Assembly (NCBI GenBank): GCA_049841135.1
Contig: JASGHK010000008.1
Span: 83,272-147,271, forward strand
Direction of reading: 5' to 3'
From: Myxococcales bacterium
GTDB lineage: Bacteria > Myxococcota > Myxococcia > Myxococcales > UBA5297
DNA: 64,000 bases
Part shown: in pieces, positions 7,326 through 50,705 of the stretch
Numbering within the stretch: the stretch's first letter is position 1
Layout of the letters: each line of letters starts with the position of its first letter
Made by a program: the position numbers and the translations under genes
The notes under the pieces: model-generated
The model's database searches: none
Told to the model about the DNA's origin: nothing
The model's input: the letters and a program-made list of their open reading frames with translations, nothing else

Positions 7326-8667
7326 ATGGGGTTGATCGACCGAGCGCGGGGCCGCGCCCCGGAAGCCGCCGCGGCAGCCGAGGGACTGGCCGCGAACCAG
7401 CAGCAGTTCCACGACCTGAAGGCCGACCTCCATCGGCGGCTGGTGGATCGCATCGACCTGCGCACCCTCGAGAGCCTCCCGCCGGACCGCGTCCGCGAGG
7501 AGCTGCGAAGCGTGTTGGGCGCCATGGTCCAGGAGAAGCTCGTTGCCACTCAGCCGCGCCGAGCGCGAGCGGATGGTCCAGGAGCTCATCGACGAGCTCA
7601 TCGGCCTGGGGCCTCTCGAGCCGCTGCTGCGCGACCCGACCATCAGCGACCTGCTCGTCAACACCTACGCCACCACCTACGTCGAGCGCCGCGGCAAGCT
7701 CGAGCTGACCCCGGTGCGCTTCCGCGACAACGACCACCTGCTGCAGATCATCAACCGCATCGTCTCGCGGGTGGGACGCCGGGTCGACGAGGCCTCGCCG
7801 ATGGTCGACGCCCGGCTCGCCGACGGCTCGCGCGTCAACGCCATCATCCCCCCGCTCGCCATCGACGGCCCCTGCCTGTCCATCCGCCGCTTCGGCTCCG
7901 CGCCCCTGCGGCTGCTCGAGCTGGTCGAAGGCGGCAGCGCGCCGCGCGAGGCCCTGGCCTTCCTGGGCGCCGCGGTGCGCGCCAAGCTCAACGTCCTCAT
8001 CAGCGGCGGCACCGGCAGCGGCAAGACCACGCTGCTCAACGCCCTCTCGGCGTTCATCCCCGACGGCGAGCGGGTGGTGACCATCGAGGACTCGGCCGAG
8101 CTCAAGCTGCAGCAGAAGCACGTCGTGCGCCTGGAGACCCGCCCGCCCAACATCGAAGGCGTCGGGGAGATCGTCGCCCGCGACCTCGTCCGCAACAGCC
8201 TGCGCATGCGCCCCGACCGGATCATCATCGGCGAGGTCCGCGGCGCCGAGGTGCTGGACATGCTGCAGGCCATGAACACCGGGCACGAGGGCTCGATGAC
8301 CACCGTGCACGCCAACACCCCGCGCGACGCGCTGGCCCGCATGGAGGCGATGGTGGGGATGAGCGGGGTCCCCATGGCCGACGGCGCGGTGCGCCAGACC
8401 ATCGCCCGCGCGCTCAACGTGATGGTGCAGCTCAACCGCTACACCGACGGCAAGCGGCGGCTCTCGAGCATCGCGGAGATCACCGGCACCGAGGGTCCCA
8501 CCATCACCTTGCAGGAGATCATCCGCTTCGAGCAGCAGGGGGTCGACGCCCAGGGCCGCGTCGTCGGGCGCTTCGTGGCCACGGGGGTGCGGCCGCGCTG
8601 CACCGAGCGGATCGAGCGGGCGGGCATCGACGCCGACGAGCTCTTCGCGCGCATCGCGGGGGCCTAG
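7326..8667 (+). CDS. cpaF: CpaF/TadA secretion ATPase, apparent +1 frameshift near 7545-7556
   Basis: N-terminal frame: [47 protein letters not shown]. Downstream frame: [18 protein letters not shown]...[16 protein letters not shown] (Walker A)...[33 protein letters not shown]. This is the VirB11/GspE-like ATPase of Tad systems. Confidence 0.85.
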
Positions 8668-12741: not shown

Positions 12742-14077
12742 CTACGGGCCGAAGGTGGCTTTGAGCCCCTGCTCGATGCCGGCCTCGAACTGCCCGGCGA
12801 GCTCCGGGGCGAACAAGACGCGCTTGGCCTCGCCAGTCCCCTGCTTCACGGCCTCGGCCGTCTCCACGTAGCCCACGTAGCCCTGCGCGAAGGAGACGAG
12901 CGCCAGCCGTTCGCCCGGCGCCAGCATCGGCGCGAGCTTCTTGCGCCACTCGAACGACACCGAGGACGTCGGCTCCCCAGGGAGCATCACCAGCGAGAGC
13001 CCCGGCACGCGCAGCAGCGCGAAGCTCCGCCTTGCGCGGCGCCAGCGCGTGCAGCACGTTCGCCGCCGGCATGCTCAGGAAACCGGGAACGGCGTGCTCG
13101 GCCTCGGCGCGTGGCATCCCGACCTCCACGGCCGCCCAGCGCAGCGATGGGGCCGCCGGTGTCGCGGCCGCCAGCAGGGCCTCCTGCGCCGCCTGGGCCA
13201 CCCGCGCGCCCATCCGGTCCACCGGCTCGCCTTCGCCCTCCTTCGGCGGGTCCGAGCTCTGGTCGCCCATCGCCCCCTGCAGCAGGAGCGCCACCCCGCC
13301 CCCGTCCGCCTCGAGCCTGCGCATCGTCCGCCCGGGCCAGTCGCCGTCGAGCGCCTTCGGGTCGCGGCCGACGACCGTGGCGTGCGAGCCGAAGACCACC
13401 AGCCGCGAGACCGCCTTGCCCTGGGCGTCGTCCACCGCGAGGACGGTGAGCAGGTCGTCGTTGGGCGCGCCATCCCGGTCGCGGTTGTAGAGGATGCCGG
13501 GCAGCGGTGCCTGCGCGACGCGGACCTGGGCCGGCGCGAGCGCCTGGTTCGCCTTGTCCAGCGCCTCCTTCAGCCGCGCGATCAGCGCGTCCTCGCGCTC
13601 CTGCTGCCAGCTGCCGGTGGCGCCGATCTCCGCGACGGGGTTGCGGTCGTAGCCGCCGAAGGACGAATGGGTGTGCGTGGCGGTGACCGCCGCGTCGGCG
13701 AGCCCCAGCTCCTTCGCGCGAGCGCGGACGGCCTGGGCGACGCGCTGGGGGATCTCCAGCACCTCGGCGCTGATCAGCGCGACCGACTTGTCGCCCGCGG
13801 ACAGGACCAGCGCTCGCGCCGAGAGCGGCCCACTGGTCTTGGCGGTCGGCCGCGGCGGCGGATATCCGGCGACCGTGGCCGGAAGCGCCGCGTCCATCTC
13901 CACCTTGGCGGCGCCGGCCCTCCACTGCTCCGCGACCGCGGCCGCCTGCGCGACGACCTTGGGCTCGGGCAGCGGCCTCCTCCCGCGCCAGTCGAGCGAG
14001 AAGAGCACGTAGAGCATGCCCAGCGTGTAGACGACGACGAGCGCGCGGGACGACCGGCGGGGCTTCAGCTCAGGCAC
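12742..14077 (-). CDS. neutral/alkaline ceramidase-like hydrolase, apparent +1 frameshift near 13024
   Basis: GTG start at 14077 with GGAGG 9 nt upstream. N-terminal TM segment, then LGLADAAVTATHTHSSFGGYDRNP (ceramidase-like THTHS motif). The C-terminal 88 aa (VPGLSLVMLPGEPTSSVSFEWRKKL...GLKATFGP) lie in another frame ending at 12742. Confidence 0.5.
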
Positions 14078-14153
14078 CTTCGCTCGCCTCCACACGCCGT
14101 TTCTTAGCGGCGCCGAATCACCGGGCCTATAATCCCGGGCCAAGGATACCCAA

Positions 14154-15008
14154 ATGGCCTCTCGCATCGCGGACATCTTGCACCGGGCCAAGCTCATCGA
14201 CGACCTGCAGCTGCGCTCGGCGACGGCGCACCAGGCCCAGTGGGGCGGCCGCATCCCGACCATCGTCATCGAGAAGAAGTTCGTCTCCGAGGAGAAGGTC
14301 GTCGACGCCATCGCCAACGCGATGAAGCTGCCCAAGGTCGACCTCGGCACGGTGGAGACCGACGCGGCGGCCATCGGCAAGCTCGACGCCGACTTCTGCA
14401 AGGTCAACGCGGTCTTCCCCTGCGCGCTCAAGGACAACGGCAAGTCGCTGTGGCTGGCGATGGTCGACCCCACCAACCTGCCGGTGGTCGACGAGGTCGC
14501 GCTCAAGGCCAAGGTCCGCGTCAACCTGGTGGTGGCGAGCGAGCGCCAGGTCCAGGCCGCCATCAAGCGCGCCTACTACGGCGAGTCCCCGAGCACTCCG
14601 CAGAGCTTCGGCAACTTCACCTCCATCGAGGTCCCGGTCGGCGAGGAGGAAGAGGGGAAGATCGTCGACATGTCGGGGCACACCTTGATCAAGAACATCA
14701 AGGACATCGTGCCCCAGGCGGCCAAGAAGGCCCCGCCGGTCGGCGACGGCGCCGACGACGTGGCGTTCAAGGACGCCAAGCCGGGCATGGTCACCGGGGC
14801 CCTGCAGATGCTCGACGAGATGTTCGGCCCGGAGGACGGTGTCCCCTCCCGCCCGACCTGGACCGACCAGGACCTCGAGCGGCTGCGCGCCATCCAGGAC
14901 CAGCAGGAGAAGGGGGCGCGCATCCTGCGCGCCGTGCTCGACCTGTGCGTGGCCAAGGGCTACTTCTCGCCCGACGAGTACCGGCTCAAGCTCAAGAAGC
15001 TGATGTAA
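14154..15008 (+). CDS. MshEN / T2SSE_N domain protein (putative c-di-GMP-binding)
   Basis: ILHRAKLIDDLQLRSATAHQAQWGGRIPTIVIEKKFVSEEKVVDAIANAMKLPKVDL...KSLWLAMVDPTNLPVVDEVALKAKVRVNLVVASERQVQAAIKRAYYG matches the GspE/MshE N-terminal domain, found as stand-alone proteins in myxobacteria. TATAAT sits at 14128-14133 upstream. Confidence 0.6.
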   Translation: MASRIADILHRAKLIDDLQLRSATAHQAQWGGRIPTIVIEKKFVSEEKVVDAIANAMKLPKVDLGTVETDAAAIGKLDADFCKVNAVFPCALKDNGKSLWLAMVDPTNLPVVDEVALKAKVRVNLVVASERQVQAAIKRAYYGESPSTPQSFGNFTSIEVPVGEEEEGKIVDMSGHTLIKNIKDIVPQAAKKAPPVGDGADDVAFKDAKPGMVTGALQMLDEMFGPEDGVPSRPTWTDQDLERLRAIQDQQEKGARILRAVLDLCVAKGYFSPDEYRLKLKKLM

Positions 15009-15017
15009 GGGCGGGGC

Positions 15018-15297
15018 CTCCATCAATTGGAGATGGGGACAAAACTGATCGCGGCTGGCGGGACGCCCGCAACCACTGGGCCCTCCTCCTCCATCAATTG
15101 GAGATGGGGACAGGACTGATCGCGGCGGGCGGGACGCCCGCAACCACTGGGCCCTCCTCCTCCATCAATTGGAGATGGGGACAGGACTGATCGCGGCGGG
15201 CGGGACGCCCGCCTCCACTGGGCCCTCCTCCTCCATCAATTGGAGATGGGGACAGGACTGATCGCGGCGGGCGGGACGCCCGCCTCCACTGGGCCCT
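15018..15297. repeat. 71-bp tandem direct repeat, about 4 copies (unit ctccatcaattggagatggggacaggactgatcgcggcgggcgggacgcccgcaaccactgggccctcct)
   Basis: catcaattgg recurs at 15021, 15092, 15163 and 15234 (period 71). Copies are near-identical with a few substitutions (aaaact/aggact, caacc/cctcc). The array starts 10 nt after the MshEN-gene stop. Confidence 0.9.
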
Positions 15298-15395
15298 CAG
15301 GTTGCTAAAGGTTTGACTCGGGTGGCGGGAAGAAGCACCGCCGTGTCGAGGTGATGGTCGCCAAGGCAACCGATGGGCCCTGAGCGTCTTTCAAT

Positions 15396-15460
15396 CAGTC
15401 CTGCCTTGTCTCCATTGATGGAGGAGGGCCCTGTGGTTGCGGGCGTCCCGCCCGCCTTCA
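15396..15460. repeat. inverted, degenerate copy of the 71-bp repeat unit
   Basis: cagtcctgccttgtctccattgatggaggagggccctgtggttgcgggcgtcccgcccgcc is approximately the reverse complement of ggcgggacgcccgcaaccactgggccctcctcctccatcaattggagatggggacaggactg. Confidence 0.8.
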
Positions 15461-15513
15461 CTTCAATCCGCCAGAATCCGTCAGCGACGGGGAGGCGGGG
15501 GAGGGGCCCTGCG

Positions 15514-16219
15514 CTACCGCGACCCGGGCTTGCGCGGCACCGGCGAAGGCATCCCCGGAGGCGTCTGGCCGGTCCGCGCCCCGAATGGCCCGGTCGGCTG
15601 CCTTGCGATCGGCTTGCCCGGAACGTCCTCGATGGGCTGCGCGGGCTCGGTCAGCGACGCCAGCCCCCGCTCGACCAGCATGAAGGGCACGAAGCACAGC
15701 CGCGACCACTCCGGGCCCACGGCCTGCTTGAGAATCGGCGACGGTGGAGCCGGTTCGGCGCAGCGTGCCGTAGACCCAGTGCTCCGGGCCGGATAGCGCC
15801 GCGCCCTCGAGCGGAAGCGGCCACAGGCGCTGGGTCAGCTCCATGGTGGTCGGGCGCTTCTTGAGCCGCAGCGCCAACTTCGGGTCCTTGAAGACCAGGT
15901 TGTCGTAGAGGGTGAACGCCGCCTCGAAGATCTTGGCGTCGCCGGTGGCGAGCGCGATGCCCGCCTGCGTGCCGTTGACGTGCATCACGCGGCCCTTGAG
16001 CTTGATCACCGGCTCGCCGGGCGGCTTGAGGATGACGTCGTAGTCCGAGTTGGGCGCCAGCGCCGCCCCAGGGGGCAGCTTGACCCTCAGCCCCCCGGGC
16101 GACAGGTCGACGGCAGTCCCGACGTACTCGAACTCGTCGTCCTGCAGCTGGGCAGGGATGCTGACCGGGATGCGTCCGTGGGCCCTTCGGTCACGGATCT
16201 TCTCGACGTTGCTCGGCAT
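15514..16219 (-). CDS. PilZ-domain protein (c-di-GMP receptor); C-terminus uncertain (possible +1 frameshift near 15715-15730; alternative stop 15458)
   Basis: ATG at 16219 with GGAG RBS. RRAHGRIPVSIPAQL...DLSPGGLRVKLP is the PilZ RxxxR...D/NxSxxG motif. After ...TVADSQ the listed frame turns into Ala/Arg/Gly-rich text encoded by the inverted repeat copy, whereas the alternative frame (GPEWSRLCFVPFMLVERGLASLTEPAQPIEDVPGKP...) stops at 15514. Confidence 0.6.
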
Positions 16220-16265
16220 GTTGCTCCGGCAGCCCCCCGTCGGTGGTGTCCCCAAAGCCCTGTTT

Positions 16266-17913
16266 CTAGTTCTTGGCCTCGGACTTCGCGGCCGCGAGGT
16301 TGGAAGACAGGATGAGGTCGCCCTTCTTGAGCCAGCTGCCGTCGTCGAAGGCGGCGTAGAAGTCGCCCAGCACCGCGTCGAAGTCCGGGTAGCGGTCCTC
16401 GCGGCGGTCCTGGGTCATCTTGTCGAAGAGCGGGTCGAGCTTGCTCGGCACCTTGTTGTTGACCTGGCTGGGCAGCGGCGAGCGGCGGCCCGGCAGCTGG
16501 CCGGTGAGCATCTCGTAGAAGAGGATGCCCAGGCCGTAGACGTCGGTCACCGGGCCGGAGTCCTTGGTGGAGCGCGCCAGCTGCTCGGGGCTCATGTAGC
16601 CCATGCCGCCGGTGCCCACGAAGACCTGGGGCATGCCCTTGCTGGCGTCGACTTCGATGACCCGGCCCAGGCCGAAGTCGGTGAGCTTGATGTTGCCCAG
16701 GTGGTCGAGGAGCACGTTCTCGGGCTTCAGGTTGCCGTGCGTCAGGCTCTGGCCGTGGGCCATGCGCAGCGCGTAGGAGAGCTGCAGGAAGTAGCGGATG
16801 GCCTCCTCGGCAGGCAGGCCCTTGCCGCCGGCGGCGTCCATGCGGGTGCGCAGGTTGCCGCCCGAGCAGAGCCTCGACGACGTAGTACGGCCGCGCCACG
16901 TCGCAGTTCTGGTCGAGGATGGTGGCGACGTTGGGGTGGCGCACCAGGGCCTGCGCGCAGATCTCGCGCTTGAGGCGCTTGATGACCTCGCTGCGCTGCA
17001 GGAAGGAGAAGTAGCCGAAGATGTCCTTGAGCTCCTTGATGGCCACGTCCAGCCCCAGCGCCGTCTGGCGGCCGCGGTAGACCGTGCCCAGGGGGCCCTG
17101 GCCGAGCGCGTCGTACTTGACGTAGCGCAGGTCAATCTCCTGGCCCTTGGGCTCGTTCTTGGCGACTTCCGGCGCGGGCGGCTTGGGCAGGTTGCTGGGC
17201 GGAGGCGGCGGGATCTCGGCGACCCGCGGCGCGGTCTCCTCGCGCGCGGCCCGGCCGGAGTCGGCGCCGTCCATCTGGGCGCCGCGCCCACGCCCGCCCT
17301 TGCCGCCGCCGCCGCGACCGAAGACCGACGGAGGAGGCGGAGGCGCAGGCACCTCGACCTTGGCGGCCTGCGCGGGGCGCAGCGGCTCGGGCTCGTCCTC
17401 GGTGGCAGGGGGCGGAGGAGGTGGCGGCGCGCCGGCGGCGGCGGTCATCTCGTGGTCGACCGAGGAGTCCGCGAGGATCTCGGTCTGGCTGGACACCACC
17501 GGCTCCTCGGTGATGCGCGAGGCGAAGTACTCCTGCACCGCCTCCAGGAAGCGGTCGCGGCGGTCGCCGTCGACGATCTTCTCGCCCTCGGGCGTCAGCT
17601 GCAGGCACGCCTCGCGGTCCATGCCGATGAAGTGGTACTTGCGCAGGAAGAAGAAGTAGGTGTCGAAGTCGATGGACACCTGGTTCTCGAACGCGCTCTT
17701 GACGTCGGCGAGCTTGTTGGAGCGCGACGCACGGGAGTTCTCCCGCAGCGTCCCGAGGATGTTGAGCGCTTCTTCGGCGATCTGGTCCCGGGTCAAGGCT
17801 TTCTCCGGCGTGGCCCCGTCTTCATCGGGGGTTGGAAGGCGCCGCGGGTGCTTTCCGCAGTGCGTGGGGGAAAAAAGGCCGAGCGATTCTAACAGAGGCC
17901 GCTCTACCGGCAA
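16266..17913 (-). CDS. Ser/Thr protein kinase (Hanks-type), apparent +1 frameshift near 16862-16870; N-terminal start uncertain
   Basis: N-terminal frame gives a Pro-rich linker then kinase subdomains I-V (LGQGPLGTVYRGRQTALGLDVAIKELK...PYYVVEALLG). The other frame continues GGNLRTRMD...HGNLKPENVLLDHLGNIKLTDFGLGRV...GYMSPEQ...DVYGLGILFYEMLTGQLP. Confidence 0.75.
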
Positions 17914-19296: not shown

Positions 19297-19324
19297 CGAC
19301 ACCCCGAGCTCGTCGAGGGGTCAG
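19297..19324. repeat. 27-nt intergenic motif cgacaccccgagctcgtcgaggggtcag (copy 1 of 3)
   Basis: Near-identical copies at 28824-28851 and 47126-47152. Each lies just 3' of a stop codon and contains the palindrome CGAGCTCG. Confidence 0.7.
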
Positions 19325-19342
19325 GGCCTGGTCCCAGCCCGA

Positions 19343-21522: not shown

Positions 21523-21703
21523 GCTGAGCCTCCTGGAACGCCCAAAAGTGGGCGAGAGGATAGCAGAGGCCTCTGCCGGGCCGCAGCCAAAGTCAGTGGA
21601 GCGCGGAGCTCGGGCGGGCGCCGTGCCACGGCAACTGCCACGGGCATCGCCCGGAAGGCGCCTTGCCTCTCCTCCGACGAAGGCGTCCTGGCACGAAGCA
21701 TTG

Positions 21704-21775
21704 GTCCCATGCGTCCCATGCGTCCCATAGGACGTATAGGACCTATAGGACGCATGGGACCTATGGGACCGACAG
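21704..21775. repeat. 9-bp tandem array, 8 units (GTCCCATGC GTCCCATGC GTCCCATAG GACGTATAG GACCTATAG GACGCATGG GACCTATGG GACCGACAG)
   Basis: Read directly. Lies in the divergent intergenic region between dapB (minus, start 21522) and the Cys-rich lipoprotein gene (plus, 21981). Confidence 0.85.
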
Positions 21776-21980: not shown

Positions 21981-23627
21981 ATGTCTCCCGTCGCCGCCGA
22001 AATCCCGTCGCTCAGCATCTCCCGCCGTGTCGGACAGGCCGTGGCCGAGGTCCTCGCCGGCCTGCTCCCCGTCGTCTTCATGCTCTACGCGCTGCTGGCC
22101 TCCGGCTGCACCGCACCGGCCGCCACTCCGCAGAAGACCCCGAACGTCAAGGGCGTCCTCTCGCAGCGGATCTCCGGGACGCCGCGCTCGGCCGCCTCCG
22201 GCCAGGGCAGCTTCACGGCGATGGTGGTCCGCGAGGACCAGATGCTGCCGAGCCTCTCGTCCACCGCCGCCACCTACTCCGTGCCCGCCGACGGCATCAC
22301 CCACTCCGTCGCCGGCGGCCAGGCCATCGGCGCCCAGACGACCGACGACACCGGGGCCGCGTGGTGGGTGCTCATGCTCGCCCAGAGCTTCGCCGCGCCG
22401 ACCGAGTCGGTGATGGTCGCCCTGCCCGCCTCGGCGTACGTCCCGGGCAACGTCTCCCTCGACGGCATCCAGGCCGTGGCCTACCTGGTCGACGCCAACG
22501 GCAACCCCCTCGCCTACTCCACCAGCGGCCTGCTCTCCCTGACCGCCGCGCCGACCGCGCCCGGCGCGCTCGCGGTGGGCTCCTTCACCGGTACCTTCGC
22601 CGCCATCCCGGCGAGCGGCCCCTGCCGCACCGACGCCGACTGCTACGCCGGCGAGGTCTGCTCGGGCGGAACCTGCATCCCCGCCGACTGCTCCGTAACC
22701 GGCTGCCCCGCGGGGATGGCTTGCGACGCTTCGCTCGGAGCCTGCGTCCCGGCCGGCTGCACCACCGACGCCGACTGCGGCAACGGGCTTGCCTGCCGCG
22801 GCGGCCAGTGCACCCCCGCCGGCTGCACCCTCACCGGCTGCCCGGCCGGCTACGCCTGCGACGCCACCATCGGCCAGTGCGTTCCCCAGACGGCGACCTG
22901 CCGCACCGACGCCGAGTGCGCCGCCGGCCAGGTCTGCGTGAGCGGCACCTGCCAGGTCGCGCCCACCGGCTGCCAGACCACCGGCTGCCCCGCGGGCTAC
23001 GCCTGCGACTACTCCTCCGGCGCCTGCGTCCCCAGCACCCCCGTCTGCCGCACCGACGCCGACTGCGCCCGCGGCATGGTCTGCGACGTCGCCAGCGGCA
23101 CCTGCGCCTACCCCTCCGGCTGCCAGACCTACGGCTGCCCCGCGGGCTACACCTGCGACTACTCCACCGGCGCCTGCGTCTCCGGCACCGCGACCGGCTC
23201 GTGCTTCCCGGAGCCGAAGATGGGCACCGGCAGCTTCAGCGGCAGCGCCGGCTCGGTGGCCATGTGCTCCGCTGCAGGCCTCGACTCGCTCAACGGTGGC
23301 CCGGACGCCGGCCTGTTCGACGGCGAGGACGACAACTACAACCCGGCCACGCTCTTCGTCATCGGCGACCTGATGTCCGGCAACGGCGACAGCTACCTCA
23401 TCGTGGTGCTCGACCAGTGCCCGGCCGCGGGCAGCGTGCTCTCCGCCCCGGCCACCAAGTTCATGGCGCTCAAGCAGAGCGTGACGGCCGACGCCGTGGT
23501 CCAGATCCAGAAGACGGCGACCAGCGGCACCCTCACCTTCGCGGCCGGGCCCAACGGCTCGCTGACCGCCAGCGTTACCGCCACCTTCGGGGCGGACACC
23601 ATCACCGGCGACGCCACGCTCCAGTAG
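21981..23627 (+). CDS. lipoprotein with about 5 tandem myxobacterial-type cysteine-rich repeats
   Basis: RBS gaggagaagc, then lipobox LLASGC. Repeated about 45-aa units of the form CRTDADC..G.VC..GTC.P.GC...GCPAGYACD...G.CVP. Resembles the Myxococcus cysteine-rich repeat (TIGR02232-like), identified from memory. Confidence 0.7.
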   Translation: MSPVAAEIPSLSISRRVGQAVAEVLAGLLPVVFMLYALLASGCTAPAATPQKTPNVKGVLSQRISGTPRSAASGQGSFTAMVVREDQMLPSLSSTAATYSVPADGITHSVAGGQAIGAQTTDDTGAAWWVLMLAQSFAAPTESVMVALPASAYVPGNVSLDGIQAVAYLVDANGNPLAYSTSGLLSLTAAPTAPGALAVGSFTGTFAAIPASGPCRTDADCYAGEVCSGGTCIPADCSVTGCPAGMACDASLGACVPAGCTTDADCGNGLACRGGQCTPAGCTLTGCPAGYACDATIGQCVPQTATCRTDAECAAGQVCVSGTCQVAPTGCQTTGCPAGYACDYSSGACVPSTPVCRTDADCARGMVCDVASGTCAYPSGCQTYGCPAGYTCDYSTGACVSGTATGSCFPEPKMGTGSFSGSAGSVAMCSAAGLDSLNGGPDAGLFDGEDDNYNPATLFVIGDLMSGNGDSYLIVVLDQCPAAGSVLSAPATKFMALKQSVTADAVVQIQKTATSGTLTFAAGPNGSLTASVTATFGADTITGDATLQ

Positions 23628-28800: not shown

Positions 28801-28823
28801 CCCGAGTTCCCGAGCTCGTCGAC

Positions 28824-28851
28824 CGACACCCCGAGCTCGTCGAGGGGCCAG
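28824..28851. repeat. 27-nt motif copy 2 (cgacaccccgagctcgtcgaggggccag) with adjacent partial copy at 28807-28822
   Basis: See 19297..19324. Confidence 0.7.
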
Positions 28852-29018
28852 AGCATCGGGTCTCCACCGGACAACCCTGCGAATCCTGGCTCCTTTCCTC
28901 GGCCGCCCCGGCGCTCCTGCCCCCGCCAGGCGATGGTGCCGGCCTGACCCGCGGGAGGTCTGAATGCCCCAGCCCCCTGGCCGCCACTCTTCCTTCAGCG
29001 GGCTTGGACCCTCCGAGG

Positions 29019-45419: not shown

Positions 45420-45685
45420 TCAGCCGTCGTCTCACGGATGCGGACGGGGCCCCGAGCGACATGGGGCCCCTTTCCTTCTGCTGGCGATGGCCGCCCGCGC
45501 GATGGGCTGGCGGGCCACGAGCCCAAAGGCTGCCCGTCCGCAGGGCAAGCATTGGCCGTCCCGAGCGATGACCTCGGCCATGCTGCGCCGTGGGGGCCTC
45601 CTCGCCGAACGACGAGCCCGGCCGTGAGACGCGACGAGGCCGCCGCTCTCGAGCGGCACGACGGCCGGCCCGAGCCTTCTTGGAC

Positions 45686-45856
45686 GCTTCCCGCGCTGCT
45701 TCGAGGGCTTCCCGAGCCGCGACGGCGGATTCCCGAGCTTCATCGGGCGCTTCCCGAGGCTTGGCGCGGGCGTCCCGGGCCGCCAAGGCCCCCCTCCCGA
45801 GCTTCGAGAGCCCCCCTCCCCGGCTTGCATGCACCCCTCCCGAGCCTCGAAACACC
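45686..45856. repeat. degenerate tandem array of about 8 units of 21-23 bp (consensus c-TTCCCGAG-cttcgag...)
   Basis: The TCCCGAG / TCCCGGG / TCCCCGG cores recur at 45688, 45709, 45731, 45750, 45772, 45794, 45816 and 45837 with 19-23 bp spacing. Confidence 0.7.
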
Positions 45857-45938
45857 CTCGCGCCCACGAGCGAATGTCGGACCCGCAGGGTATGAAGACT
45901 CCCGTTCAAAACGACCTTGCTGTCGGAGGTCGGGTGTA

Positions 45939-47122: not shown

Positions 47123-47125
47123 CCT

Positions 47126-47152
47126 TCACCCCGAGCTCGTCGAGGGGTCAGA
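47126..47152. repeat. 27-nt motif copy 3 (ttcaccccgagctcgtcgaggggtcag) directly after the recA stop
   Basis: See 19297..19324. Confidence 0.7.
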
Positions 47153-47167
47153 GTTTGCCGAAAGGCC

Positions 47168-47210: not shown

Positions 47211-47572
47211 GTCACTGGGCGGCGACGTGGAGGGTAGTGCCGGGCTTCCACGCCCGGGGCATCTTTGTGAACCGTGCATCGGTGGCGCGCGGGCTCCCCA
47301 CCAGCCGCGCCACAGACGAACGAATCGTGAGGATGCCCCCGGCGTGGAAGCGCGTGGAAGCCGGGCACTACCCAGCTGCGCCACAGACGAACGAATCGTG
47401 AGGATGCCCCCGGCGTGGAAGCCTCTTGATTCATCACATCTAGGGACGCCGCCGCGGCGCGCACCTCAGATTTCGCTGGCGTCACAAACAGCCGTGTGCC
47501 ATACGGTGGGGGGGTGGAGCCATCGAACGCGCCGTTGCTTCGCTATCGCAACCGAGTGATCGGCGAGGCGGA

Positions 47573-48511
47573 GTGCGGTTCATTCGGGACACGGTTGACC
47601 GCCAAGACGCCAGGACCCGGTCCGATCTTGCTCGAGCTATCTGCAAGGCGTGGGATTGGCGACAGGCCAACGGCAGCTACGCCGTCTTCGCCTGCCAGGA
47701 CTTGCTCCTCCGGCTTGAGGAGTGGGGCCACATCAAGCTACCTGCGCGACAGCGCCGGTGCCGAGATGGGCACGATCTACCGGTATTGCCGCAGGACTGC
47801 ATTCCGCTGGCGTGGTCTCCGGTGGGGAACGACGCGAATCTTGACCAACTCGTGGTGCGGCCCATCGAGCCCGCCGAGCGTCTGGGCTGGCGACTCTTCA
47901 TCGACCGATTCCACTATCTCGGAGACAAGCCGCTCGTAGGCGAGCACCTGCTGTACGCCGCATTTCTCGAGGGCCAGGTGGTGGCCCTGCTCGGCTGGGC
48001 CTCTGCGACCCTCCATTCGCCGCTACGAGACCGGTACCTGGGCTGGGACAACGACACCAAGCGGCGCAAGCTGCACCTGGTCGTCAACAACGTGCGCTTC
48101 CTCATCCCGCCCTGGGTTCGAGTCGAGCACCTGGCTTCCAAAGTGCTCGGCCGGACCCTGCGGCGCCTGAGCGCGGATTGGCAGGCCCGCTGGAATCACC
48201 CGGTCCTGCTCGCAGAAACTTTCGTCGACCACGCTCGGTTTCGGGGCACGTGCTACCGCGCCTCCAACTGGCGCTATCTGGGCACGACGGCAGGCCGAAC
48301 CCGACGCGGGAACGCCTATCTGCACGAGGGCAGTCCCAAAGGGCTCTACGTCTACGAGCTGCACCGCCAGGCTCGCCGCCGGATGTGCGAGGAGCATCGC
48401 CATGAAGGAGTCGTCGGGGCTGCTGCCGCTGGAGCAGGAGATGGGCCAGGCCAGGCTGGGAGACCGGCGTCTGAATCGGCGTCTGATCGCTGCGGTGGGA
48501 CGCTTGAGTGA
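47573..48511 (+). CDS. IS-associated accessory protein, DUF4338-like (identification from memory; N-terminus uncertain)
   Basis: ICKAWDWRQANGSYAVFACQDLLLRLEEWGHIKLP...FHYLGDKPLVGEHLLYAAF...AETFVDHARFRGTCYRASNWRYLGTTAGRTRRG. Overlaps the transposase start by 110 nt in another frame, inside the IS ends. Confidence 0.45.
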   Translation: MRFIRDTVDRQDARTRSDLARAICKAWDWRQANGSYAVFACQDLLLRLEEWGHIKLPARQRRCRDGHDLPVLPQDCIPLAWSPVGNDANLDQLVVRPIEPAERLGWRLFIDRFHYLGDKPLVGEHLLYAAFLEGQVVALLGWASATLHSPLRDRYLGWDNDTKRRKLHLVVNNVRFLIPPWVRVEHLASKVLGRTLRRLSADWQARWNHPVLLAETFVDHARFRGTCYRASNWRYLGTTAGRTRRGNAYLHEGSPKGLYVYELHRQARRRMCEEHRHEGVVGAAAAGAGDGPGQAGRPASESASDRCGGTLE

Positions 48512-49883
48512 CGAGCCAGCCAAGAGCTTTCCGCAGGCCTTCGAAGACGATGCGGCAGGGCTAGAGGCGCTCTACCGGCTGGTCAACAACCCGAAGCTCA
48601 GCACGGCAAAGGTGCTGCAGCCACATGCACAGGCGACCGTTGCCCGCTGTGTCACGGAGCGGGTGGTGCTGGCGATCCACGACACCAGCAGCGTGGCCTT
48701 CCAGAGCGAGAGTGAGCGCGATGGCCTGGGCCCAGTCGATGGCGGGACCCAAGGCCTCTATCTGCACACGACCCTGATGGCGAGCGCGACGGAGCACTAT
48801 CGGCCGCTCGGAGTCGCGGCGATGAAGCTCTGGGCTCGCCAGCCGATCCCGGACCATCTCCAGGGTGGCGAGAACCACTACCAGCGCAAGAAGGCGCGGC
48901 GGCTTTCGCCCGACAAGGAGTCCCTGCGCTGGAAGGAGCAGATCGACTCGGTTGAGCAGGCGGTGGCGCAACAAGCCCAGGTCCTCCACGTCGGCGACAG
49001 CGAAACCGACGACTACGACCTGCTGGCGCACCTGGTCGAAAAGGGATTCCGGTTCGTCCTGAGGCAGAAGCACAACCGAAGCTTGGAAGGCCCGCCGGAG
49101 AAGAAGAAGAAGCTCATCGAGGCGATCGCCGATGCATCGACGGTGGCAACTCGAGAGGTGCACCTGTCGGCGCGCACGAAGGGCACGACGCCCAAGGCTC
49201 AGGCGACTCATCCGCCGCGCAACGCACGCGACGCCAAGCTGCAAGTCGGCTGGACGAGGGTGTCGCTGAAGAGGCCAGACAGAGCGAGTACGACGCTGCC
49301 GACGTCATTGCCGATCAACGTCGTCTTCGTGCTCGAGAAGGACTGTCCCGTTGGAGAAGATCCCATTCAGTGGGTCCTGTACACGACCGAGCCGGTCGAT
49401 ACCGAAGAGCAGCTTCTCCAAGTCGTCGACTACTACCGCGGCCGATGGCTGATTGAGATGTACTTCGACGCCCTCAAGAACGGATGCGCACTCGAGAAGC
49501 GCCAACTCGAGAGCTTTCACGCCCTCAGCATCGCAATCGGTCTCTTCGCGGCAATTGCCTTTCGCCTGCTGCTCATGCGGACCCTGGCCGAATCGAAGCC
49601 CGACACACCCGCGACCGCGGCACTCTCACCGCTCCAGCTCGACGTGCTCCGCGCCTCGCTGAAGAAGACCAAGCTGTCAGAGGCGCCGACGGCCAAGGAG
49701 GTCTTCTGGGCCGTGGCCGCGTTGGGCGGGCACCTCAAGCACAACGGGCGCCCTGGCTGGCGGACGCTCGGACGTGGCTACGAGAAGTTGCTCATCCTTG
49801 AAGCTGGCTGGCGCGGCGCGCTGAAAGCGCGAAGCGCGTGCTCGGGCTGCCCGGGGACCGCCAGGCGCCCGGACGAGAAGTGA
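48402..49883 (+). CDS. IS4-family transposase, Tn5/IS50-like
   Basis: Collinear with Tn5 Tnp. N-terminal DNA-binding region (LGDRRLNRRLIAAVGRL). DDE core with the YREK signature (PIQWVLYTTEPVDTEEQLLQVVDYYRGRWLIEMYFDALKNGCALEKRQ). C-terminal VFWAVAALGGHLKHNGRPGWRTLGRGYEKL. Confidence 0.85.
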   Translation: MKESSGLLPLEQEMGQARLGDRRLNRRLIAAVGRLSDEPAKSFPQAFEDDAAGLEALYRLVNNPKLSTAKVLQPHAQATVARCVTERVVLAIHDTSSVAFQSESERDGLGPVDGGTQGLYLHTTLMASATEHYRPLGVAAMKLWARQPIPDHLQGGENHYQRKKARRLSPDKESLRWKEQIDSVEQAVAQQAQVLHVGDSETDDYDLLAHLVEKGFRFVLRQKHNRSLEGPPEKKKKLIEAIADASTVATREVHLSARTKGTTPKAQATHPPRNARDAKLQVGWTRVSLKRPDRASTTLPTSLPINVVFVLEKDCPVGEDPIQWVLYTTEPVDTEEQLLQVVDYYRGRWLIEMYFDALKNGCALEKRQLESFHALSIAIGLFAAIAFRLLLMRTLAESKPDTPATAALSPLQLDVLRASLKKTKLSEAPTAKEVFWAVAALGGHLKHNGRPGWRTLGRGYEKLLILEAGWRGALKARSACSGCPGTARRPDEK

Positions 49884-49984
49884 CCAATCCAGAGGCGTGG
49901 AAGCCGGGCACTACCCAGCCGCGCCGCAGACGAACGACTCGGGAGGTGGCCCGGCGTGGAAGCGCGTGGAAGCCGGCACTACGC

Positions 49985-50705
49985 CTATTTGGTGGCGACG
50001 TGGATGGCCACGATACCCATCGACAGCTTCTCGTACTCGACCTTGGCGAACCCGGCCGCACTCAGCTCCGCGGCGAGCGCCGGCGCATCGGGGAAGGCCT
50101 GGATGGAGTTGTGCAGGTACTCGTACGCCGCCCGGTCGCCGGCGATGCGCGCTCCGAAGACGGGCAGGATCTTGCGGACGTAGAGCCAGTAGACGGGCTT
50201 GAAGGGCGCGAAGCCGGGGTGGGTGCAGCTCGAGCACCACGTAGCGGCCGCCGGGCTTGAGCACCCGCTTGACCTCGGCGTAGTTCGCGGGCCGGTCGGC
50301 GAAATTGCGCAGGCCGAAGGAGACGGTGACCGCGTCGAAGCTCGCGTCGGCGAACGGCAGGCGGGTGGCGTCGGCGATGGAGAAGGTGATCCGCTGTCGG
50401 GCAGCCGCGTCGTCGATGCGGTCGATCTTCTTCTTCCCACCGATGAGCATCGCGGCGGTGAAGTCGCTGGAGACGACGAGGCCCGGCTTGGCCTGCTGGG
50501 CGAGCGCGGCGGTCAGGTCGCCGGTCCCGGCGGCGAGATCGAGGACGCGGGCGCCTTCGGAGATGGCTGCCAGGCGCACGGCGCGCTTTCGCCAGGCGCG
50601 GTCGAGTCCCCAGCTGGCGATTCCGTTGAAGCGGTCGTAACCGCCGGCAATCTTCGTGAAGAGGGCTTGGACCTTCTCGGGCTCGGCTGAGTGCTGGACG
50701 TTCAT
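49985..50705 (-). CDS. ubiE: demethylmenaquinone/ubiquinone methyltransferase UbiE/MenG, apparent +1 frameshift in the C4 run near 50212-50215
   Basis: KVQALFTKIAGGYDRFNGIASWGLDRAWRKRAV...VLDLAAGTGDL (SAM motif)...FDAVTVSFGLRNFADRPANYAEVKRVLKPGGRYVVLELH. Shifted frame continues PGFAPFKPVYWLYVRKILP...LSMGIVAIHVATK, matching the UbiE C-terminus. Confidence 0.8.

Follow-up and report, generated by a model that had tools for sequence, protein, structure and literature searches.

Small repeats of several kinds lie between bacterial genes. REPs are short palindromes of roughly 20-40 nt, and REP elements are known to impede read-through and to protect mRNA 3' ends. In enterobacteria and Pseudomonas, such elements occur as REP/BIME clusters and REPINs (REP/REPIN concept: PMC3116915; PMC3337134). 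The insert described here, from a 64-kb stretch of myxobacterial DNA analysed as a whole (the window), resembles these elements in being extragenic, in adjoining gene 3' ends as they typically do, in containing hairpins, in having both orientations able to pair into a long hairpin, and in being absent from the orthologous sites of relatives. It differs from them in form and apparently in number. REPs number tens to hundreds per genome and are linked to a RAYT transposase, whereas only one locus was found here in 64 kb. In addition, the insert lacks the REP or REPIN form, being built from a ~70-nt module (71-nt unit) with two separate hairpins, arranged head to tail, whose nearest inverted partner is at least 95-125 nt away.

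MITEs and foldback elements are a second point of comparison. In foldback elements, one arm consists of tandem sub-repeats, and the same holds for the present locus. A further likeness is that several hundred bp of non-coding DNA with inverted arms sit precisely in an otherwise tiny intergenic gap. In contrast to such elements, a convincing target-site duplication was not found, neither a parent IS nor a further copy turned up in the sequences searched, and the arms are very unequal (4.1 vs about 1.5 units). The sole IS in the window, an IS4-type element, has ends unrelated to the array.

The MIRU minisatellites of Mycobacterium tuberculosis consist of direct intergenic units of 40-100 bp at about 40 loci, mostly between co-directional genes of operons. 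Likewise, the present array is an intergenic direct tandem of near-identical copies (71 bp x 4.0, between two stop codons) that starts from a stop codon, and this near-identity suggests copy-number change driven by slippage. Unlike MIRU, it was found at one locus, between convergent genes, and with an extra inverted copy. The pneumococcal BOX element (boxA-boxB(n)-boxC) is a modular intergenic repeat with more than 100 dispersed copies. It resembles the array in the tandem repetition of an internal module, whose number varies in BOX, and in a predicted stable RNA or DNA structure, and the two have no sequence similarity. A CRISPR array is not indicated, as the units abut without spacers. Thus, the kind of element is known and the sequence is new, and it cannot be filed as any one known family. 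We found no publication on REP or MITE families of Myxococcota.

Structure of the repeat

A 71-bp period with 4.0 copies was detected at 15017-15298 by Tandem Repeats Finder (97% matches, 0% indels, score 515), in agreement with the four-copy tandem repeat reported in a first-pass annotation of this DNA. The direct units lie head to tail and are 95-100% identical, with three mismatches between copies 1 and 2, two between copies 2 and 3 and none between copies 3 and 4. A 54-nt core of the unit gave four matches in the window at up to three mismatches and none in 100 dinucleotide-preserving shuffles. The array had been said to begin 10 nt past the stop codon of the upstream MshEN gene; the actual distance is 9 nt, and it is filled by a degenerate lead-in from 15009 (Table 1).

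Table 1. Features of the convergent gap and its two flanking genes (positions in the window)
Feature	Position	Strand	Remarks
MshEN-domain gene	14154..15008	+	284 aa; NCBI MGC4122024.1; PF05157, E = 1.8e-14
Degenerate lead-in GGGCGGGG	15009..15016	+	Directly abuts the stop codon; resembles the unit tail GGGCCCTCC; nhmmer envelope from 15011
Unit copy 1	15017..15087	+	Three private changes, one breaking a GC-hairpin pair
Unit copy 2	15088..15158	+	Closest to the inverted copy (97% arm pair)
Unit copy 3	15159..15229	+	AA to CT at unit positions 55-56, common to copy 4
Unit copy 4	15230..15298	+	69 nt, identical to copy 3
Centre of insert	15299..15393	.	95 nt, 60% G+C, no repeat
Inverted copy	15394..15470	-	About 1.1 units; spans a unit junction in phase; neither hairpin stem disrupted
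Possible further degenerate half-unit (GGGCCCCTCCCCCGCCTCC...)	15471..15513	-	Local alignment to about 15499; weak, not significant alone
PilZ gene, homologue-shared frame	15514..16219	-	Stop TAG 15514-15516; +1 insertion near 15735

Each unit carries one CAATTG, one GGGCCC and the hairpin GCGGGCG-GGA-CGCCCGC, so that the CAATTG and the GC-rich palindromic segment ascribed earlier to every copy are both present. The module can be described as a short weak hairpin (CUCCA-loop-UGGAG) and this strong GC hairpin, joined by linkers. The unit repeats every 71 bp, which corresponds to about 6.8 helical turns. GGA motifs number four per unit, compared with 1.1 expected per 71 nt, and two of the four lie in hairpin loops. 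Some of the differences between copies fall at adenines. A diversity-generating retroelement was considered and rejected, there being no reverse transcriptase nearby and the repeats lying outside any coding region. A tRNA-derived origin of the 71-nt units was also rejected (no tRNA in the window by ARAGORN).

The degenerate inverted copy that had been proposed downstream of the array is real. It amounts to about 1.1-1.5 units, begins ~95 bp beyond the last direct copy, and is 84-97% complementary to the direct units depending on the stretch compared. The best pair of arms, 15124-15160 (mostly in copy 2) and 15420-15456, spans 37 nt with 97% complementarity. A gapped match of 15394-15456 gave 84-87% over 68 nt with three small indels (E = 1e-9 to 1e-13 within the window), and the unit HMM stretched the inverted copy to 15391-15469 (nhmmer). 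Its differences from the direct units are confined to the linkers and one loop, with none in the hairpin stems. This sparing of the stems could hint at selection for structure; the events number only about six, too few to tell.

The rarity of CAATTG (six sites in the 64-kb window, four of them in the array), the occurrence of GGGCCC once per unit and the regular spacing might suggest that CAATTG, GGGCCC and the GC inverted repeat, presented every 71 bp, form a DNA-level array of protein-binding or recombination sites. We consider this highly improbable. The inverted copy has CAATGG in place of the CAATTG palindrome. Genes for a recombinase, a regulator or a partition protein are absent next to the array, whose neighbours are syntenic in relatives that do not have it, and regular spacing is in any case simply what tandem duplication yields.

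Both outer ends of the insert open in the same unit phase (GGGC...CCTCC), both arms begin right after stop codons, and each arm is oriented like the gene that precedes it. As in MITEs and foldback elements, terminal inverted repeats are present, with arms 84-97% complementary, while the outermost 40 nt of the right arm are weakly similar. No clean target-site duplication was found at the insert ends. The only candidate is a 9/10 G-rich match between GGGCGGGGCC at 15009-15018 and GGGAGGGGCC at 15499-15508, which could be due to chance in a 70% G+C genome.

Flanking genes and extent of the gap

The insert had been placed between convergent genes for two c-di-GMP receptors, MshEN and PilZ. At the domain level both identifications stand, as does the convergent arrangement (for MshEN see Table 1; for PilZ, E = 9.5e-14, with the RxxxR and DxSxxG motifs kept). 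The MshEN gene ends with TAA at 15006-15008, a stop position shared with its homologues, and the C-terminus aligns with those of relatives. The product is an MshEN-domain protein without an ATPase domain. Its N-terminus, RIADILHRAKLIDDLQLRSATAHQ (window 14154-14230), fits only in part the published 24-residue c-di-GMP-binding MshEN motif, and by its domain membership the protein is a putative c-di-GMP receptor.

The annotated PilZ ORF runs to a stop codon at 15458-15460, and its last ~85 codons align with no homologue. Alignment by tblastn and at the DNA level located a single-base insertion near 15735, beyond which the homologous C-terminus carries on in another frame. Since this shared frame stops at 15514-15516, the true gap is 15009-15513 (505 bp), the same interval that the first-pass annotation had delimited. 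Its further statement that the inverted copy lies at or overlaps the 3' end of the PilZ gene describes an apparent overlap only: the annotated C-terminus reaches the repeat through a frameshifted reading frame, and the conserved PilZ coding sequence is not overlapped by the inverted copy.

Frame shifts relative to homologues or Pfam models were noticed in four genes of the window, namely those for a ceramidase (13023-13031), PilZ (15716-15740), a Ser/Thr kinase (16861-16874) and the UbiE methyltransferase (~50200). By DNA alignment, two of these are single-base insertions, with GAGCTC reading GATTCTC in PilZ and GAGCT reading GAGGCT in the kinase. The frame shifts are likely to be uncorrected long-read indel errors, because UbiE is an improbable pseudogene; real pseudogenes are the other reading. 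Errors at a methylated GAGCTC motif were rejected as their cause, since 54 intact GAGCTC sites are present in the window.

If the assembly is an indel-prone long-read MAG, as the frame shifts (+1 or -1) in at least these four genes suggest, the copy number or the inverted copy might be products of mis-assembly. The repeat itself makes such an artefact scarcely probable: the substitutions among copies are specific and nested, unlike the products of collapse or expansion, there are 0 indels within the 284 bp of the array, and the inverted copy is 13-16% diverged and has indels of its own. Moreover, the contig is 1.65 Mb long (1,652,613 bp).

Comparison with relatives

The gene order MshEN> <PilZ <Ser/Thr kinase <TPR is syntenic in seven contigs from five related lineages, in which the MshEN protein is about 57-82% identical. 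The distance between the two convergent stop codons is 3 bp in L074, 6 bp in L075 (and in L076, from its gene calls), 9 bp in L077 and 13 bp in L004 (also L005 and L006). It is 132 bp in L001 (also L002 and L003), and 505 bp in the host. The 132 bp of L001 show no similarity to the sequence of the host gap. As both host stop codons are at homologous positions, ~490 bp must have been inserted exactly between them in the host lineage. On this comparison, the ~490 bp is evidently a lineage-specific insertion, lacking in all sampled relatives. As would be expected of a MITE or foldback element, a non-coding insert of less than ~600 bp faces an orthologous empty site (505 bp vs 3-13 bp in four related lineages).

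Because the gaps of these relatives measure only 3-13 bp, the locus works without the insert, which is therefore unlikely to serve the c-di-GMP genes as a dedicated regulatory element. What looks like a striking repeat between two signalling genes would then be a recent insertion and not a part of the conserved MshEN-PilZ-kinase locus.

In one further relative (GCA_030154545.1; L028 and L029), the assembly breaks 27 bp past the MshEN stop codon and 103 bp past the PilZ stop codon, and the contig ends carry a GC hairpin (GCGGGCGGCCCGC). This lineage may also have extra, unassembled DNA in the gap. The break was rejected as a lead to the repeat, as no resemblance to the 71-bp unit is seen at the contig ends and fragmentation affects the entire assembly.

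Search for other copies

Within the window, the unit does not recur (blastn at word size 7; nhmmer), exactly as had been noted. Two strict patterns, taken from different parts of the unit, gave 0 matches in genomes (one per species, 185,579 species) and in metagenome contigs. With a loose 18-base seed, matched by each of the five local copies, there were 20 hits in genomes, 44 in metagenomes and one in viral contigs. These 65 matches are close to chance expectation and are scattered over unrelated phyla, and the unit HMM and blastn match them at the seed only; the scans of the collections require an exact seed, and the rest of the host genome possibly lies outside the scanned sequences. The best seed match (L062) was rejected, as it sits in an ORF of a low-G+C contig, and so was the sole Myxococcales match (L017), at 4.8 bits. 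BLAST searches of plasmid and phage collections returned nothing similar. The first-pass annotation had proposed that copies be sought beyond the locus; none were detected in the genome, metagenome, viral, plasmid and phage sequences scanned. With no second locus in the window or the scanned collections, dispersal, the hallmark of a mobile family, lacks support. No transposase or RAYT gene adjoins the array, its neighbours being syntenic housekeeping genes; a RAYT usually exists as one copy, at any place in a genome. Should further copies come to light across the host genome, the unit would define a repeat family in a barely sampled myxobacterial lineage.

Coding potential, RNA families and transcription signals

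Reading frames stay open for 62-98 codons across the array on both strands, which might be read as a repeat protein or a small ORF, and the first-pass annotation had named a conserved translation as evidence for coding. However, 71 bp is not a multiple of three, so that successive units shift through all three frames, and on either strand a stop codon recurs once per unit in one frame. Three-frame pseudo-translations found no homologue, either for the minus strand among 5.8 billion protein clusters or for the plus strand among 1.84 billion representatives, nor did they pick up spurious ORF calls from copies at other sites. Long spurious ORFs are also expected at 70% G+C. The period, the stops and the absent homologues exclude a coding array, and we regard a coding origin as extremely improbable.

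No gathering-level match to Rfam 15, which includes the c-di-GMP riboswitches and Pxr, was obtained in the window. A permissive Rfam scan of 14000-16500 reached at best 14-20 bits, against cut-offs of 35-200. No sigma-70 promoter-like site was seen in the gap region on either strand. A bidirectional terminator had been suggested for the array, and this suggestion was not borne out: hairpin-plus-U terminator-like sites number 0 on either strand of 14800-15800, and the GC hairpin is followed by AACCACUGGG. In the same window, recA has a hairpin and then U7 after the gene.

Predicted folding and possible effects on transcripts

Taken whole, the gap is predicted to form a foldback on both strands (z = -10.7 and -11.9), the result of pairing between a direct unit and the inverted copy across ~65 bp. 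A lone unit is no more stably folded than shuffled sequence (z = -1.2 to -2.1), nor is the 95-nt centre (z = -0.2 and -0.9). The earlier proposal of a large structured RNA is therefore upheld as far as the predicted foldback of the whole gap on either strand goes; for the single unit, which is unstructured beyond the shuffle level, and with respect to Rfam, where no match exists, it is not.

Given that each arm runs in the direction of the gene upstream of it, the 3' UTRs of both mRNAs would contain the module in the same sense. A read-through transcript from either side could form the ~65-bp duplex, and the likely outcome would be stalled read-through and a protected 3' end for both convergent mRNAs. 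Such an arrangement might have been selected as a bidirectional terminator, an insulator or a 3'-UTR stability element that separates the two convergent units and protects their 3' ends. The co-oriented arms starting right after the stop codons, the stable GC hairpin of each unit, the long inter-arm duplex predicted on both strands and the hairpin stems left unchanged between direct and inverted copies would all suit this role. Selection for it nevertheless seems unlikely to us: no hairpin is followed by a U-tract in 14800-15800, while recA has one, four related lineages have their stops 3-13 bp apart, so that the locus can do without the element, the single unit is no more structured than shuffled sequence, and four near-identical copies look like a recent amplification and not like a maintained design. 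Terminator, insulator or 3'-end effects are regarded as a by-product and not as a selected function.

A more speculative scheme, prompted by the GGA content of the unit and the GGA motifs in its hairpin loops, would have a functional RNA in sense in both 3' UTRs. The amplified array would offer many sites at which an RNA-binding protein, CsrA-like or other, could dock or be sequestered, and expression of the two genes would thereby be coupled. Alternatively, the insert could be the founding member of a new Myxococcota family of foldback MITEs whose arms grow by tandem amplification. Both ideas are considered quite improbable.

Origin of the insert

We hold with moderate confidence that the gap insert is recent, selfish or neutral, non-coding repeat DNA, of a foldback MITE or BIME-like nature, whose left arm has recently been amplified by slippage. 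The inverted copy shares the AA at unit positions 55-56 with copies 1-2 and the G/GG at positions 26, 27 and 40 with copies 2-4. This sharing of substitutions points to copy 2 as the nearest to the ancestor, to the CT of copies 3-4 as derived, and to the 3-to-4 duplication as the latest. The following course of events can be proposed. Insertion of a small non-autonomous element, or else an inverted duplication, would have brought in one module in each orientation. Stepwise amplification of the left arm by replication slippage or unequal exchange would have followed, with copies 1 and 3 diverging from copy 2, the oldest form, and the 3-to-4 duplication coming last. The right arm would have decayed. 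Arms that grow in tandem in this manner might provide a convenient strain marker (VNTR).

Other repeats in the window

Small extragenic repeats of mobile type occur at gene 3' ends in this genome. By analogy, which is not proof, the presence of other such repeats in the window makes an origin of the array from a mobile element the most economical reading.

The IS4-type element has its ends at 47232-47430 and 49894-49982, which enclose 47573-49883, and encodes a DDE transposase (Tnp_DNA_bind, DDE_Tnp_1) after an overlapping DruA-like (PF14236) ORF. It lies between the recA terminator and the ubiE 3' end and is flanked by a diverged 17-nt direct repeat (47218-47234 / 49991-50007). The two ends share the terminal inverted repeat GGGTAGTGCCGGGCTTCCACGCC with a 96% match, its subterminal repeats have a 71-nt period, and its left end contains a 123-nt foldback (z = -6). 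The repeats in these ends resemble the array in their 71-nt period, in the combination of tandem and inverted partial copies, in their position at a gene 3' end and in their strong foldback. They differ from it in that their sequence is unrelated and that they flank a transposase gene, whereas the array flanks nothing. A common origin of the two was rejected, the alignment score being below the shuffle mean.

A palindrome of 25-31 nt, CACCCCGAGCTCGTCGAGGGGTCAGRGC, is found at 19297-19327, 28824-28854 (with a partial copy at 28808-28823) and 47124-47154, at 87-100% identity. Each copy stands just past a stop codon (of HPPK, a 145-aa ORF and recA, respectively), and the palindrome is a candidate REP-like family; a weak 18-nt match to it is present in the relative L001 at 8264-8281. 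At 21703-21770, two abutting 34-nt arms, 85% complementary and with 9-nt repeats of the ATAGGAC/GTCCCAT type, make up a 68-nt near-perfect palindrome. As this palindrome lies between the divergent dapB and a gene for a Cys-rich repeat protein, it could be an operator. Degenerate tandem repeats of 21-22 bp (CCCGAGCTTCGAA..., 3-4 copies, 68-70% match) are located upstream of recA at 45669-45857. Lastly, a 147-bp (49-codon) tandem repeat at 22622-23189, in a Cys-rich secreted-type gene with an orthologue in L001 and faint Dickkopf_N/DUF7107 similarity, is an ordinary coding repeat.
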